A DNA stretch of 64,000 bases from a virus. This document shows, piece by piece, positions 1 to 7,680 of the stretch (positions are counted from its first letter, which is position 1; every line of letters begins with the position of its first letter). The stretch spans positions 1 to 64,000 of IMG/VR virus record IMGVR_UViG_3300042526_000097; one strand, 5' to 3'. Position numbers and translations under genes: made by a program. The notes beneath the pieces were generated by a model. The model was not told the origin of the DNA, did no database searches, and saw only the letters and a program-made list of their open reading frames with translations.

Positions 1-71
1 AGTCAGGACAGGATTTGAACCTATATTCTCCCTCCCTTTAGAGCTGTGTTGCACAATTACACCACCTGACC
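1..71 (-). tRNA. tRNA-like element with degenerate anticodon arm (3' discriminator lies outside the window)
   Basis: Minus strand reads GGTCAGG-TG-GTGT-AATTGTGCA-ACAC-A-GCTCTAAAGGGAGGGAGAAT-ATAGG-TTCAAAT-CCTGT-CCTGACT. Acceptor stem, D stem and T arm all pair, but no canonical 5-bp anticodon stem can form. Confidence 0.7.
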
Positions 72-1277: not shown

Positions 1278-1429
1278 ACTTTTTGTTTTAGAAGGTAAAT
1301 AAATAGGGTTATGATTAATAAGGTCAAGAGCTCAAAGGCTAACATAGAGTTTATGTTTGTAGTCAGCATTGAGTACATTAAGCCTGCCATAGACAGGACT
1401 AGTGCAAGGAATAAAAGGTTTTGTTTCAC
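1274..1429 (-). CDS. Small membrane protein, 51 aa (not in the ORF track)
   Basis: GTG at 1429 gives MKQNLLFLALVLSMAGLMYSMLTTNINSMLAFELLTLLIITLFIYLLKQKV*. Its TGA overlaps the next ATG, and it has an A-rich leader. Confidence 0.65.
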   Translation of the reverse strand: MKQNLLFLALVLSMAGLMYSMLTTNINSMLAFELLTLLIITLFIYLLKQKV

Positions 1430-1464
1430 GATGGTTTTGTTTTTAATGTGATAAATAGGGTTAA

Positions 1465-1734
1465 TTAGGCTTGCATCTCGTAGAAATTAACATTAGAGAA
1501 GTTCTCAATAAGGTAGGATATAACTCCAATAGGTAAACCACTTGCATAGTTTTTACCATCTGGAGATATAGTACCATGTATGAGTCTGAACTTATCTATT
1601 CTTAAAAAGTACTTCATCTTATCTGATGATTCATAGTAGTATTGGATACTCTCTTCAGGTACTACATCTACTTTTGTGATGTTGATGTTCATTTGATAGG
1701 CACAAGCATTGACAAGTAATTCTTTTGGCGACAT
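1465..1734 (-). CDS. Hypothetical protein directly downstream of the twister ribozyme
   Basis: 89-aa ORF; ATG preceded by the A-rich leader (AAAACAAAACT) typical of Bacteroidota. Confidence 0.7.
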   Translation of the reverse strand: MSPKELLVNACAYQMNINITKVDVVPEESIQYYYESSDKMKYFLRIDKFRLIHGTISPDGKNYASGLPIGVISYLIENFSNVNFYEMQA

Positions 1735-1761
1735 AGTTTTGTTTTGAATGTTTTAGAATGA

Positions 1762-2077
1762 TTGTTTAGTTATCCCTCTGCACTCAGTTGTAATCACTTT
1801 ATAACAACATCAGGCGGAATACCGCAATCAATGTTGGTCATCAGACTTACACTTTTTGTTACAACTGCTCACCCTTGGGAGCTGATTAACTTTAGTTACA
1901 GGCAATATTACCTTCCCCTACAGAGCACCCACTCTATTGTGAGATTTATCTATAGCTTCGTTTGTTAATCAGGTAGTTTCACATCTTAAATGTACTTGTA
2001 TTTCTACAAAGGGATAATAGTCCTTCAACCATTTAAGATGCTTATGCTACGTGAGTTGTGGTGCATTAATAAAACAA
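1762..2077 (-). ncRNA. Twister ribozyme (type P1) with large structured insertions in L4 and P5
   Basis: Minus strand reads TTA-T-T^AA-TGCA-CC-ACAA-CTCAC-[170 nt]-TCCC-AA-GG-GTGAG-CAGTTGTAA-[65 nt]-TTACAACTG-AG-TGCA-GA-GGGA-TAA. P1, P2, P4, P5 and both pseudoknots (TCCC/GGGA, CC/GG) pair in the order of the twister consensus. Confidence 0.85.
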
Positions 2078-2094
2078 GGATGTAGAGTCCTTGT
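2068..2094 (-). terminator. Terminator-like hairpin overlapping the 5' arm of twister P1
   Basis: ACAAGGA-CTCTACA-TCCTTGT followed by TTTATT on the minus strand. Confidence 0.4.
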
Positions 2095-2119
2095 GTGAGT
2101 CCTTTAAGTTAATAAAGGT

Positions 2120-2197
2120 TTAGTCGTTTACTTCTAAGAGCCACTGCTTGAGTGTACCTAAGAAGACCAGAGATCCCTGGTTGTCGTATACTGCCAT
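2120..2197 (-). CDS. Possible 25-aa peptide (MAVYDNQGSLVFLGTLKQWLLEVND)
   Basis: Short ATG-TAA ORF co-oriented with neighbours, upstream of the ribozyme; no other support. Confidence 0.3.
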   Translation of the reverse strand: MAVYDNQGSLVFLGTLKQWLLEVND

Positions 2198-2662
2198 GAG
2201 GTTAAAACATTATAGTTTATTAGTTATTTAAGGTTTGTTAAAGTAAGTGGAAGGGAATGATAGGGAGCTTGTAGGTGTATGTAAGGGATAGAATAGGTGG
2301 TTAAATGGTGTTGAAGGTGTAGGAAGTTGGAAGGATTTATAGTTGATTAAGGTGTTGGAAGTAGTCAAGAGGATAGGGATAAAGCAGTATAGAACTATAA
2401 GTCAGAGAGATGAAAGGACAAGAAGAGTTCTAAAAGACTGTTTTGATGGAGGGAAGTTCTAGGGTGTCTCAACCTGACATACAGACTAAAAAGATTGAAG
2501 AGTCTTTTATCTTTTATTGCTCTACAACCTAATGTCTATAGGACTTTCAAGTTGTCAGTAGTCTACAAGTCAGGGAAGGAAATAAAAGAGTTCTTTGTCT
2601 TTTATTATGCCACAAGTAGTCTTGACGTGACGGGAAGAAAAGAAAAGAAAAGCACGTTGGAG

Positions 2663-2780
2663 AACTTGCAGTTAGGAGGAAGCCTTGCACAAACTTGCAG
2701 TTCGGTCACGAAGTGACAAACTCCTGAGACTGTGTAGACGAAGTCGGAACAGTTGAAGGGTATTATGAGACGAAGTCTCA
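2663..2780. repeat. Array of triloop mini-hairpins (3x AC-GAA-GT core; 2x AACT-TGC-AGTT)
   Basis: GTCAC-GAA-GTGAC 2705-2717, GAC-GAA-GTC 2737-2745, TGAGAC-GAA-GTCTCA 2766-2780; AACTTGCAGTT at 2663-2673 and 2692-2702. Confidence 0.8.
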
Positions 2781-2790
2781 ACCTTTTAGG

Positions 2791-2826
2791 ACAACAAGAG
2801 AAGGAAGCCCATAACAGGCTCCCCTC
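2791..2826 (-). terminator. Probable intrinsic terminator after the 2881-3612 gene
   Basis: Minus strand GAGGGGAGCCTG-TTA-TGGGCTTCCTTC followed by TCTTGTTGT. Confidence 0.5.
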
Positions 2827-2880
2827 GTCTCATTGAACTCACACAAAACCTCATACTATCAGGTGTTGAACACCTTAGGT

Positions 2881-3612
2881 TTATGCGTCTGCAAGTGCAG
2901 AAATCTGTGCGTCTGACCAACCTGCTTGAGTCAAGGCCTCAACACTGTAAACTGTACCGTCACTCATCTTCTTCATAGAAGGTGGTGTAGGTCCTGCCAT
3001 TACAGGTTGTGGAACTCCTTGTGGTGCAGGTGCAGAAGGTGCAGAGATAGGTGTTGCAAGTGCAGTTCCAAAACTACGTTCTGTACTCTTAGCAACTTGT
3101 ACATTTGAACTTACTCTGTTCAATGTCCACGCAGATTTAACCTCTCCTGTCTTCGTGTCTGTCCACGTGTCCTTTTTCAACATACCCAATGCCTGTCCAT
3201 AATTCTTCAAGGCATTTAAGTCTGCATTGTCCTCCCAAATAGAGGCACGAACTGTGTACTTGTCTGCAATCTTATAGAATGCATTTCTACAATCCTCTGC
3301 TGTTGCAAATGGTTGAGTCAAGAATGCATTAATTTCAGTTGCGAAGGCATTGAAGTTCACAACAGTTGTAGAGGATACTACATACTTACCCTTTACACCG
3401 TTTGCAGTGTTTGCAGGTAATGCCTGTTGTTCTTTACCCCAAATCAATGAAGCCTCAACAGGTGTTCCCTCTACAGGGTCAATTTCCTTGAACTTCAAAC
3501 GCATAACTGCACTCTTTGCCTGCTCTACTGTCTGTGAAGAACGAAGTGAAGGCTGTTGTGGTGTTGCTGTGGATGCTGTGGGTGTCGGTGTTTGCTCAAT
3601 TAATGTAAGCAT
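2881..3612 (-). CDS. Hypothetical early protein, possibly ssDNA-binding-like
   Basis: 243 aa with a compact core, a Pro/Ala-rich linker and a short C-terminal module (YSVEALTQAGWSDAQI) resembling the tails of some phage SSB-like proteins. The function is inferred. Confidence 0.75.
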   Translation of the reverse strand: MLTLIEQTPTPTASTATPQQPSLRSSQTVEQAKSAVMRLKFKEIDPVEGTPVEASLIWGKEQQALPANTANGVKGKYVVSSTTVVNFNAFATEINAFLTQPFATAEDCRNAFYKIADKYTVRASIWEDNADLNALKNYGQALGMLKKDTWTDTKTGEVKSAWTLNRVSSNVQVAKSTERSFGTALATPISAPSAPAPQGVPQPVMAGPTPPSMKKMSDGTVYSVEALTQAGWSDAQISALADA

Positions 3613-4244: not shown

Positions 4245-4697
4245 ATGTCAGAAGATTTAAACCTCCCTGAAGAGATGGAACAACAAGAACCATCTACACC
4301 ACAAGTATCAGACTCTACAACTTCAATGCCTGAAGAGTATACAGTAGATAGTACTGAGACACCTCAGTTTGAAGAGCCTACTACAACTGAAGAACCAATC
4401 AAAGATGGTTGGGCAGTAATGAGAGATTATCTCTCTCAGTCTGAAGAAGTAGAACCTACTATCAAAGCATTAATGGACAAGTATGCTGACTCGCACGCTG
4501 TGAAAGTCTACAAGTCTGAAGATGAGAGTGAGTGGGAACTATTCCTAGTACACCGGTCTTCATTACCTACACACCAAACATGCAAGACACTTAGAGATAT
4601 TATCTCAAGTGGAGTTGAAGGACCTAACAAGTACGGAATGCACACGTGGATTCATGGTACTAAGGAAGAAGTCCTTGAGGCATGTACAACACTATAG
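4245..4697 (+). CDS. Acidic hypothetical protein
   Basis: ATG 4245 (MSEDLNL) after an A-rich leader; Glu/Thr/Pro-rich N-terminus. Confidence 0.75.
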   Translation: MSEDLNLPEEMEQQEPSTPQVSDSTTSMPEEYTVDSTETPQFEEPTTTEEPIKDGWAVMRDYLSQSEEVEPTIKALMDKYADSHAVKVYKSEDESEWELFLVHRSSLPTHQTCKTLRDIISSGVEGPNKYGMHTWIHGTKEEVLEACTTL

Positions 4698-5598: not shown

Positions 5599-7680
5599 AT
5601 GTGGCATAATCTAGTAAATACTGAATACTTCAAGGAGGCAGCTAATGGCTTTAAGAAAAATGGAGGCAAGTACACTCTAGCCCCTAGAGGTTCTAAGGAC
5701 TACTTTGACTTTTGGCAGATGCATGAAGATAGATGTAAGAAAGGCTACAAGGTAGGTGGTACTTGGATTACAGGTAGACACTACTTCCATCTTAACTTCC
5801 AACCTATGTGGAAGACAGATGATGCTGTAGCATTAAGAGCATTTGAAGAAGCTAGAGATAAAGGTGGTAGGATATCTAAAAGAACTGCTGATAAGATATT
5901 AGACTTTCCAAGATTCCACGAGATGCAATATGAATGGTGGAGATTTAAACACATAGCTTGGAATGGTGGAACATTTATGGGAATAGACTCACCAGGGGGT
6001 AAGCACATGTGTTGTGCCAAGACTCGTGGAGCAGGATTCTCTTACATGGAAGCTGCTGATGGTGTGTACAACTACAACTTCATTCCCGGTTCTAAGTCAT
6101 ACTATTTTGCATCCACAGAACAATACCTAACAGTAGATGGTATTTTAGTTAAAGTACAAGAGGGACTAGATTGGATTAACAACCATTGTCCTTATTGGAA
6201 ACAGAACAGACAGAAGAAGAATACAATGATGCATCAGAAAGCATCTTACTTAGATCAGTATGGAGAAGAGCAGGGTTCTATGGCTGAGATTATGGGAGTC
6301 ATTGTAGACAACGCTAATAAGACTAGGGGTAAGAGGGGAAAGAAAGCAGTCTTTGAGGAAGCAGGTTCTTTTAAGAATCTTAAAGCTGCCTTAGAAATCA
6401 ACATGGGTTCTATGAGAGATGGTGACTTCTATGTAGGTCAGATATCAGTCTTTGGAACAGGTGGGGAAGAGGGCCCTTCAATTGAGGGACTTGAAGATGT
6501 CTTTATGAATCCTCATCAGTGGGACATGCTATCCTTTCCTAACATCTGGGAAGCTGGAGCAGACTCTGAGACAGGATACTTTGTTCCTTCCTTTAGGGCC
6601 AACTTTGTGTATACTGATAAAGATGGAAACACAGACATAGAGAAGTCACTACTATCTGATAATGAAGAGAGAGTTAAGAAGTCCAAGTCTAGAGATCCTA
6701 AAGATATTGATAGAAGAAAGGCTGAGTACCCACAAAGACCTTCTGAACTATTCCAACGATTACAACTCAATGACTTTAATGTCCACGAGATAGACCAACA
6801 GATTAAGAGGATTGAATCATCTACTACTATACAAGCCCTACTACGTCATGGTAACCTAGTATCTTCAGAATCTGATACAGCTTTAAATGGTGTAGAGTTT
6901 TTACCTGACAGCAAGGCTAAGCCTATAAACCAATACCCACATAAGAGAGGGGACGACCTTACAGGTTGTGTGACTATATGTGAAAGACCTTACAAGGACC
7001 AGAACGGTAAAGTACCATCAGGTATGTACAAGTTAGTCTTTGACTCCTTCTACAAAGATGATGCTGATGACCTTACTTCTTTATTTGACATTAGAGTCTT
7101 TAAACTAGACAACCCACACGATAGTTCCTACACAGGATTACCAATAGCTTGGTATACAGGTAGACCTAAACTAGCTAGGTGCCACGAGATACTATTCAAC
7201 CTATGTATGTACTATAATGCTACTGCTCAAGGGGAGATATCAGGTGGAGGACAATCAGTCTTAGACTATGCTAAGCAAAAGAGACTATTACATTGGTTAG
7301 ACTTTGAACCTGAGATGTTACACAACAAGGAGATAGCTTCAAAACAAAAGAACAGGTCTTACCTTATGAACATGACTACTGATAGAAAGAAGATGGGTAT
7401 GACTTATATGGCTGAGTGGCACATGGAGATTAGGGGAGTAAGAGCAGACCACACGCCTATCTACAATGTCCATCAGATATATGATGTAGGTCTACTAAGA
7501 GAAATGAGAAGAGGTGGTATACAGAACTCTGATAGAATGTCTTCTACACTTATAGCTATGTTTATGATTAAAGAGAATGTAGCTTATAGAGTAAAAACAG
7601 CACAAACAAAAAGTGACTTTTACTCAAGAACTTTGTTTACAGGAACATCCATTGCAGAAGACAATACATCTCTCTATTAA
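5599..7680 (+). CDS. terL: Terminase large subunit
   Basis: KTRGAGFSY (crAss-type Walker A), VFEEAG (Walker B), GTGG coupling motif, C-terminal RNase H-like acidic residues (VFDSF, SDRMS). Confidence 0.93.
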   Translation: MWHNLVNTEYFKEAANGFKKNGGKYTLAPRGSKDYFDFWQMHEDRCKKGYKVGGTWITGRHYFHLNFQPMWKTDDAVALRAFEEARDKGGRISKRTADKILDFPRFHEMQYEWWRFKHIAWNGGTFMGIDSPGGKHMCCAKTRGAGFSYMEAADGVYNYNFIPGSKSYYFASTEQYLTVDGILVKVQEGLDWINNHCPYWKQNRQKKNTMMHQKASYLDQYGEEQGSMAEIMGVIVDNANKTRGKRGKKAVFEEAGSFKNLKAALEINMGSMRDGDFYVGQISVFGTGGEEGPSIEGLEDVFMNPHQWDMLSFPNIWEAGADSETGYFVPSFRANFVYTDKDGNTDIEKSLLSDNEERVKKSKSRDPKDIDRRKAEYPQRPSELFQRLQLNDFNVHEIDQQIKRIESSTTIQALLRHGNLVSSESDTALNGVEFLPDSKAKPINQYPHKRGDDLTGCVTICERPYKDQNGKVPSGMYKLVFDSFYKDDADDLTSLFDIRVFKLDNPHDSSYTGLPIAWYTGRPKLARCHEILFNLCMYYNATAQGEISGGGQSVLDYAKQKRLLHWLDFEPEMLHNKEIASKQKNRSYLMNMTTDRKKMGMTYMAEWHMEIRGVRADHTPIYNVHQIYDVGLLREMRRGGIQNSDRMSSTLIAMFMIKENVAYRVKTAQTKSDFYSRTLFTGTSIAEDNTSLY

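Follow-up and report, generated by a model that had tools for sequence, protein, structure and literature searches.

A putative type-P1 twister-class ribozyme with a two-hairpin module in loop L4 in a crAss-like phage genome

What kind of RNA, if any, is specified by the minus strand of the ORF-free interval that runs from position 2880 to position 1735 near one end of a viral genome? The window analyzed here is the first 64 kb (64,000 nucleotides) of a viral record of 89,418 bp with a 127-bp terminal repeat. By its genes, the genome is that of an uncultured crAss-like phage, the marker genes being a large terminase (5599-7680), a row of big plus-strand structural ORFs and an ORF of 5,487 aa. 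A preliminary description of the interval proposed a twister ribozyme interrupted in loop L4 by a structured insertion. Our analysis supports, with a probability of roughly 0.7, a putative type-P1 twister-class ribozyme with a structural arm at minus-strand positions 2072-1770 (about 303 nt), together with a hairpin at 2094-2074.

Searches of the flanking ORFs against Pfam and PHROGs returned nothing informative besides the weak single-stranded DNA-binding protein (SSB) match listed in Table 1, and no match to window positions 1400-2900 was found by blastn in the GenBank phage collection. The SSB-like ORF protein led to no relatives and the large terminase to two loci, neither of which reaches the ribozyme region (L121 diverges upstream of window position 4500), and the 89-kb genome holds no second copy of the ribozyme. 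Between the terminator-like hairpin at 2826-2800 and the ribozyme lies a pyrimidine-rich, ORF-free spacer of 700 nt (2095-2795, minus strand), and a metatranscriptome contig from a relative spans positions 2468-3000 with 33 differences over the 533 nt of overlap. A weak tRNA-like element was also observed at the genome end (1-71, minus strand); it scores 33.2 bits with the Rfam tRNA model, is clipped by the window edge, has an odd anticodon loop, and is matched by ARAGORN only with a relaxed setting, across the terminal-repeat junction.

Elements of the putative ribozyme core

Type-P1 twisters (Roth et al. 2014; described in PMC11662667 and PMC6765202) correspond to Rfam family RF03160. Like a type-P1 twister, the window copy has the order P1, U^AA, P2, 'NC', L2, P4, L4, P4', P5, P2', G-A-GGG and P1', the pseudoknots T1 (CCC/GGG plus a U-A pair) and T2 (2 bp), a guanine directly 3' of P2, and optional auxiliary stems P0 and P5 at their known places. 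The core elements named in the preliminary description (U^AA, P2, T2, P4, L4, T1, G1778 and P5) were all located where it had placed them on the minus strand, as were the two self-closing hairpin domains between P4 and T1 (Table 1); to these we add a fifth P2 pair, C2061-G1783, and the hairpin at 2094-2074. The putative general base, G1778, directly follows the P2 3' strand. The features by which twisters have been recognized manually, namely an NA cleavage site, the 'NC' for PK1, a complementary PK2, a general acid A and a general base G, are all present in the window copy (PMC11662667).

Table 1. Positions of the putative ribozyme, its auxiliary elements and its neighbours in the window
Feature	Positions	Strand	Basis	Details
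Upstream ORF	2881-3612		Pfam, PHROGs	243 aa; weak Gp2.5-like SSB match
Terminator-like hairpin 3' of the 243-aa ORF	2800-2826	minus	terminator-like scan	
P0-like or terminator-like hairpin	2074-2094	minus	terminator-like scan	7 bp, ACAAGGA/UCCUUGU; 7-nt loop
P1	U2072-A2070 with U1772-A1770	minus	sequence	U2069 perhaps also in the 5' strand
Predicted cleavage site	U2068^A2067	minus	sequence	followed by A2066
P2	U2065-A2062 with U1782-A1779	minus	sequence	UGCAC/GUGCA with the fifth pair
T2 (PK1)	C2061, C2060 with G1874, G1873	minus	sequence	CC/GG
T2 cytosine and L2 5' linker	2056-2060	minus	sequence	C2060, then ACAA
P4	2055-2051 with 1872-1868	minus	sequence, family covariation	CUCAC/GUGAG
Insert domain A	1973-2050	minus		closing stem GUAG/CUAC; internal loop CAUAAG/UGAAA
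Domain A, inner parts	within 1973-2050	minus	energy prediction alone	11-bp stem; distal junction with GAAA hairpin
Insert domain B	1882-1972	minus		closing stem CUGAUUAAC/GUUAAUCAG; interior variable
Domain B, interior	within 1882-1972	minus	energy prediction alone	CUAUAGA/UCUGUAG
Linker C1881	1881	minus	sequence	single nucleotide before the L4 core
L4 core	1880-1873	minus		UCCCAAGG: UCCC, T1 5' strand; AA unpaired; GG, T2 3' strand
T1 (PK2)	1880-1877 with 1776-1773	minus	sequence	UCCC/GGGA
P5 auxiliary stem-loop	1785-1867	minus		9-bp base CAGUUGUAA (1867-1859) with UUACAACUG (1793-1785); interior variable
3' block	1770-1784	minus		A1784; GUGCA 1783-1779; putative general base G1778; A1777; GGGA 1776-1773; UAA 1772-1770
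First downstream ORF	1465-1734	minus		89 aa, no family match; ATG 35 nt past the ribozyme 3' end

In the window copy P4 encloses ...C-UCCCAAGG, and the twister L4 consensus is UCCCAAGN, carrying strands of both pseudoknots. In the rice twister Osa-1-4, P4 and L4 read CCGGUCCCAAGCCCGG, and the window L4 is identical to the rice L4, UCCCAAGC, at 7 of 8 nucleotides (PMC11662667). A pseudoknot-free minimum free energy (MFE) fold returns P2, P4, domains A and B and P5 unaided, with an energy of -84.7 kcal/mol (z = -2.2; 3 of 100 shuffled sequences fold equally well). P1 comprises only three to four A-U pairs, and since C2061 is used by both P2 and T2, the latter may amount to one firm G-C pair.

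A subfamily of putative phage ribozymes outside the Rfam models

To place the window copy among its relatives, we scanned IMG/VR with a 16-mer across L4, P4' and the start of P5, which identified at least 119 viral loci; more than 100 IMG/VR viral contigs share the core. Nearly all of the 16-mer loci listed also have the 3' block (P5', P2' and GAGGG), at a variable distance, and most have the 5' block. Among the 122 instances listed, 77 are insert-free, at least 19 have an insert at the same spot and about seven are chance matches. The blocks that define the subfamily are, in order, UAAUGCACCA..CUCAC, UCCCAAGG-P4'-CAGUUGUAA and UUACAACUGAGUGCAGAGGG, and all of them are present in the window. 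In the 77 insert-free copies a single U separates the P4 5' strand from UCCC, at the position where the window has its 170-nt insert. Profiles built from only these 77 copies and searched against the 89-kb genome matched at 2073-2051 (E = 2e-4), 1884-1859 (E = 7e-7) and 1794-1770 (E = 9e-8), in the correct order, on the correct strand and split exactly at the insertion site, and nothing elsewhere in the genome fell below E = 1.

Because the 16-mer set was selected on L4 and P4', further copies were sought in the same loci with nhmmer and in other loci through the A/B junction scan described below. The core tallies use filtered, parsed sets. Across these relatives the helices and both pseudoknots covary, as shown by aligned sequences. 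Ten or more fully complementary versions of P4 occur among copies that were not selected on P4, including CUCAU/AUGAG, CUCCA/UGGAG, UCAGC/GCUGA, CCUGA/UCAGG, CUAUC/GAUAG and CUACA/UGUAG, and P2 occurs as six pair sets (UGCAC/GUGCA, UGUAC/GUACA, UGUAU/AUACA, UGCGU/ACGCA, CACAC/GUGUG and UGCAU/AUGCA), with the fifth pair changing from C-G to U-A in two loci (L041 and L091). T1 is nearly invariant apart from a compensatory UCCU with AGG in L141 and L172, and T2 is CC/GG in 89 of 96 parsed copies, with UC/GA variants as well. The nucleotide at N-1 is U in 93 of the 96 parsed copies (the AA that follows it is found in every one, as the parser demanded it), and the segment from the T2 cytosine to P4 reads CAUU, CACAA or CAUAA in the same proportion (93/96). 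The 3' block motif (A/G)GUGCAGAGGG and the general-base motif GCAGAGGG are each kept in nearly all copies. The base of P5 is conserved family-wide, and P4 3' and P2 3' lie 25 to about 300 nt apart. The assignment to the twister class made in the preliminary description is thus borne out by family-wide covariation.

By the same sequence evidence, the putative ribozyme belongs to a large phage-borne subfamily that is uncatalogued in Rfam. A search of the window with RF03160 (a model of 68 positions with a cut-off of 67.2 bits) and its relatives gave no twister-clan match, either at the gathering threshold or at E <= 10. Similarly, the Rfam twister models gave no match, even at E <= 10, in compact relatives, in loci from metagenome-assembled genomes (MAGs) or in five whole records. 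The preliminary description had anticipated that covariance models would miss this RNA and had attributed this to the inserts; the miss is real, but RF03160 also misses compact, insert-free copies such as those at L070:3860-4010 and L018:1000-1300, so that the miss is a property of the subfamily rather than of the insert. A weak P1, a missing P3 and a long P5 probably account for it, and we read the silence of Rfam as reflecting a narrow model rather than as evidence against a twister fold. In addition to being undetected by the Rfam model even when compact, unlike RF03160 twisters, the subfamily differs from known twisters in its sequence-conserved P5 base (CAGUUGUAA/UUACAACUG), its fifth P2 pair overlapping T2 and its extra nucleotide at L4 position 1. 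A literature search turned up neither a phage twister subfamily nor an auxiliary domain in L4.

The subfamily was also sought beyond viral contigs. A scan of genome contigs for 17 fixed bases in 596 Gb gave 36 matches, of which about 10 are real, all in MAG contigs and none in isolate genomes; most of the matches are due to chance, as expected for a search of this size, and the idea of a wide distribution in cellular genomes was dropped. Parts of the stretch are contained in three aquatic metatranscriptome runs (shares of 0.05-0.08) as assembled contigs, which carry neither transcript ends nor strand. One contig of 160 nt spans positions 1897-2055 with three differences, and other contigs come from relatives, insert-free forms included.

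Several relatives depart from the usual single, complete copy. Five insert-bearing loci (L080:3611-3787, L131, L157, L144 and L176) are without the UAA site (e.g., CUCUUUGCAC) and/or the general base (GCAAAGGA, GCAGAAGAA) and keep domains A and B and P5, which indicates that the fold can persist without catalysis. Other look-alikes have a plain 4-nt loop in place of L4 (L049:655-677, L096:5656-5672 and 6116-6148, L077:2070-2087 and L115:3519-3557) and keep P2, P4 and the conserved P5 base; being without pseudoknot strands, these are presumably non-cutting three-way junctions. Back-to-back twister copies with no intervening ORF occur at L079:9874-10471 (minus strand), L041, L023:8242-8900 and L114. 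At the first of these, two insert-free copies are followed by one that bears the insert, and in L041 the GAGGG of one copy abuts the UAAUG of the next; cutting of such tandem copies would free ribozyme-sized RNAs of 200-300 nt. Two ribozyme classes share one intergenic neighbourhood in L018, where a Hatchet ribozyme (RF02678, 81 bits; positions 46-208) lies about 0.9 kb upstream of an insert-free twister (1089-1217) on the same strand.

The two-hairpin module in loop L4

The junction motif of domains A and B, used as an independent query, matched 86 loci; three of these are chance matches in coding DNA and about 83 are real, almost all of them inside the same twister-like core. The aligned loci show that the single nucleotide between P4 and T1 is replaced by domain A, domain B and one C in the window and in at least 80 other viral loci. 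The insert copies share one plan: the closing stem of domain A begins right where the P4 5' strand ends, that of domain B begins right where the 3' strand of domain A ends, and a single nucleotide separates domain B from UCCC; the domains thus adjoin P4 and each other with no linker. That last nucleotide is C in 54 of 61 insert copies. The junction consensus is AAGAUGUGAAAC-YRC-(A)CUGAU plus one linker nucleotide before UCCC, for which the window has AAGAUGUGAAACUACCUGAUUAAC and C1881.

Covariation extends into the module. Of 63 copies tallied with no requirement for pairing, 40 close domain A with GUGG/CCAC and 19 with GUAG/CUAC, and 4 are odd. In a formal count over 22 insert copies, 95.9% of cells are paired and eight pairs changed on both sides, two of the four pairs of the domain A closing stem and six of the ten pairs of the domain B closing stem (e.g., AAUAACUAGU/ACUAGUUAUU and AAUGAUUAA/UUAAUCAUU); the covariation score was reached by none of 500 shuffles, and slid controls were 28-42% paired in these 22 copies. 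Covariation of the two domains, for which the preliminary description proposed a test, is therefore found in the closing stems of both, and the structured two-domain insert that it placed in L4, between the P4 5' strand and T1, holds up across the family.

Beyond the attachment points, conservation is confined to the internal loop of domain A. Relatives throughout the family keep its 3' strand, AAGAUGUGAAAC, and the internal-loop consensus is AUAUAAAG...GAUGUGAAAC (3' side ...GAAA), from which the CAUAAG/UGAAA of the window departs. Identification of this loop as a K-turn, a UAA/GAN motif or an 11-nt receptor was rejected, since the window loop and the consensus fit no one motif consistently. 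Insert length varies from 67 to 202 nt among the 16-mer matches listed, domain A from 12 to 109 nt and the domain B interior from 29 to 82 nt across relatives, and the outer 30-110 nt of A and B differ completely between contigs in both length and sequence. The inner sequences of domains A and B of the window are common to no relative, and in minimal forms domain A is cut down to a 4-bp hairpin (L037, L085 and L010).

Two loci show further arrangements. One copy (L044:4080-4330, minus strand) has a hairpin at the P3 position (CCAUCCAGUAAUGGGUG) together with the L4 arm, which indicates that auxiliary sites can be filled together. In L178:1612-2100, ORF-like sequence of more than 400 nt follows the A/B junction motif where the 3' strand of domain B would be expected, and an inserted gene may have split the ribozyme at this locus.

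As judged by sequence comparison, the L4 module is a new conserved auxiliary module of the twister class. In the CHiTA survey of about 2,600 natural twisters, auxiliary stems occur only at P0, P3 and P5; unlike known twisters, the window copy has a 170-nt two-hairpin module at L4 position 1. The zero-length linkers suggest that P4, A, B and T1 would form a four-way-junction-like hub, with A stacked on P4 and B stacked on T1. In such a hub the arm would point off the active site and leave the core geometry intact, and the strand ends normally bridged by a single U would stay adjacent. The arm would then be a peripheral structural module, which may stabilize T1 docking or offer a surface for a partner.

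Peripheral domains are familiar from other ribozymes, as in the loop-loop contacts of hammerheads and the extensions of group I introns and RNase P. Like these, the L4 arm combines conserved attachment with variable outer parts, and by analogy its role may be to stabilize the fold at low Mg2+; unlike them, domains A and B have no identified tertiary contact partner. Natural allosteric ribozymes, of which glmS and the c-di-GMP-controlled group I intron are examples, have a sequence-conserved ligand pocket. The window ribozyme likewise has an added structured domain beside a catalytic core in a 5' leader, but in contrast to those systems only the junction stems and one internal loop are conserved in the L4 arm.

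Transcript context and competing explanations

The position of the ribozyme relative to genes is consistent across the family. Eighty-seven of 100 parsed copies lie outside ORFs of at least 50 aa on either strand, and the commonest distance to the next same-strand ORF among the 100 is 25-75 nt, a range that includes the window copy. On the 5' side, the U-rich tract that follows the hairpin at 2094-2074 runs into P1 and the cleavage site. Family-wide, the mean folding energy of the 45 nt that precede the cleavage site is -8.2 kcal/mol versus -6.0 and -4.7 kcal/mol for controls (Wilcoxon p = 1e-4 and 7e-10), and many of these segments are a hairpin followed by a U-run.

The layout of upstream unit, hairpin, cut site, ribozyme and ORF is consistent with cis-processing by which two transcripts are given separate fates, a role proposed for bacterial ribozymes (PMC6765202). 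On transcription of the minus-strand gene block, the RNA would cut itself at U2068^A2067, right after the terminator-like hairpin. The upstream piece would end in a hairpin with a 2',3'-cyclic phosphate, and the downstream mRNA would begin with a 5'-OH on a compact folded RNA whose 3' end precedes the ORF start by 35 nt, such that the cut would uncouple the fates of the two transcripts. The alternative suggested in the preliminary description, that cleavage produces the end of a larger noncoding RNA, does not fit this layout, as the ribozyme ends shortly before an ORF start in the window and family-wide. A putative self-cleaving ribozyme immediately 5' of an ORF in a viral transcript recalls those of eukaryotic RNA viruses; unlike these, which are mostly hammerheads, the window ribozyme resides in a DNA phage and is known from its sequence.

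The preliminary description also raised an allosteric or protein-controlled ribozyme. In such a gated ribozyme a protein of phage or host, a small molecule or an RNA would bind domain A or B and decide T1 formation, cleavage and downstream expression. The arm does sit exactly at the strand needed for T1, and the conservation of both closing stems and the domain A loop (AUAUAAAG...GAUGUGAAAC) over about 80 loci exceeds what helix maintenance would need. However, the outer parts of A and B are hypervariable in length and sequence, some minimal forms retain domain A only as a 4-bp hairpin, the domain A loop of the window is itself off consensus, about three-quarters of the family are without any arm, and no co-occurring gene was identified. 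We consider gating unlikely on this evidence. Hypervariable outer parts on conserved attachment points suggest a peripheral structural arm rather than a conserved aptamer, so that the L4 arm is probably not a ligand sensor, and we infer that a stabilizing or scaffold role ranks above allosteric control. Less likely than gating in general is its elaboration into a natural conditional twister, in which a factor of phage or host, or a trans RNA, at the A/B junction or loop would gate T1 and time the downstream genes, with the dead copies serving as decoys.

Another question is whether the RNA cuts at all, as it could be a folded leader (an mRNA stabilizer, translation element or protein scaffold) or a decaying ribozyme. 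The relatives that keep the fold and arm but have lost the UAA site or general base, together with the L4-tetraloop look-alikes, lend this idea its strength, but the window copy keeps every catalytic and pseudoknot residue, and most of the family keeps these residues nearly invariant, which would be difficult to account for in the absence of selection for cleavage; we regard a non-catalytic RNA as quite improbable. We give almost no credence to a chance resemblance or a protein-coding origin of the conservation. A plus-strand ORF of 68 aa is listed at 1762-1968 and the z-score of the fold is modest (-2.2), but this ORF has no Pfam match, conservation is limited to RNA-structure blocks with compensatory changes, the intervening lengths vary freely and include non-multiples of three, and more than 100 related loci have the same arrangement. 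The reading that best accommodates these data is that of a putative twister-class ribozyme whose L4 arm is probably structural.

Twister is among the best-studied small ribozymes, and to our knowledge its biological role in bacteria and phages is still unestablished. A whole phage subfamily, hundreds of members strong, missed by the curated model indicates that Rfam-based surveys undercount phage twisters. The L4-expanded branch shows that a loop holding both pseudoknot strands can accommodate a two-helix module of 70-200 nt at one precise position, which is a new design rule for the twister fold and a natural test bed for peripheral effects on pseudoknot docking, with the dead copies that keep the fold as built-in controls. 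Taken together, the fixed order of hairpin, cleavage site, ribozyme and, 25-75 nt on, an ORF provides a concrete hypothesis for the role that these putative ribozymes may play in phage transcripts.
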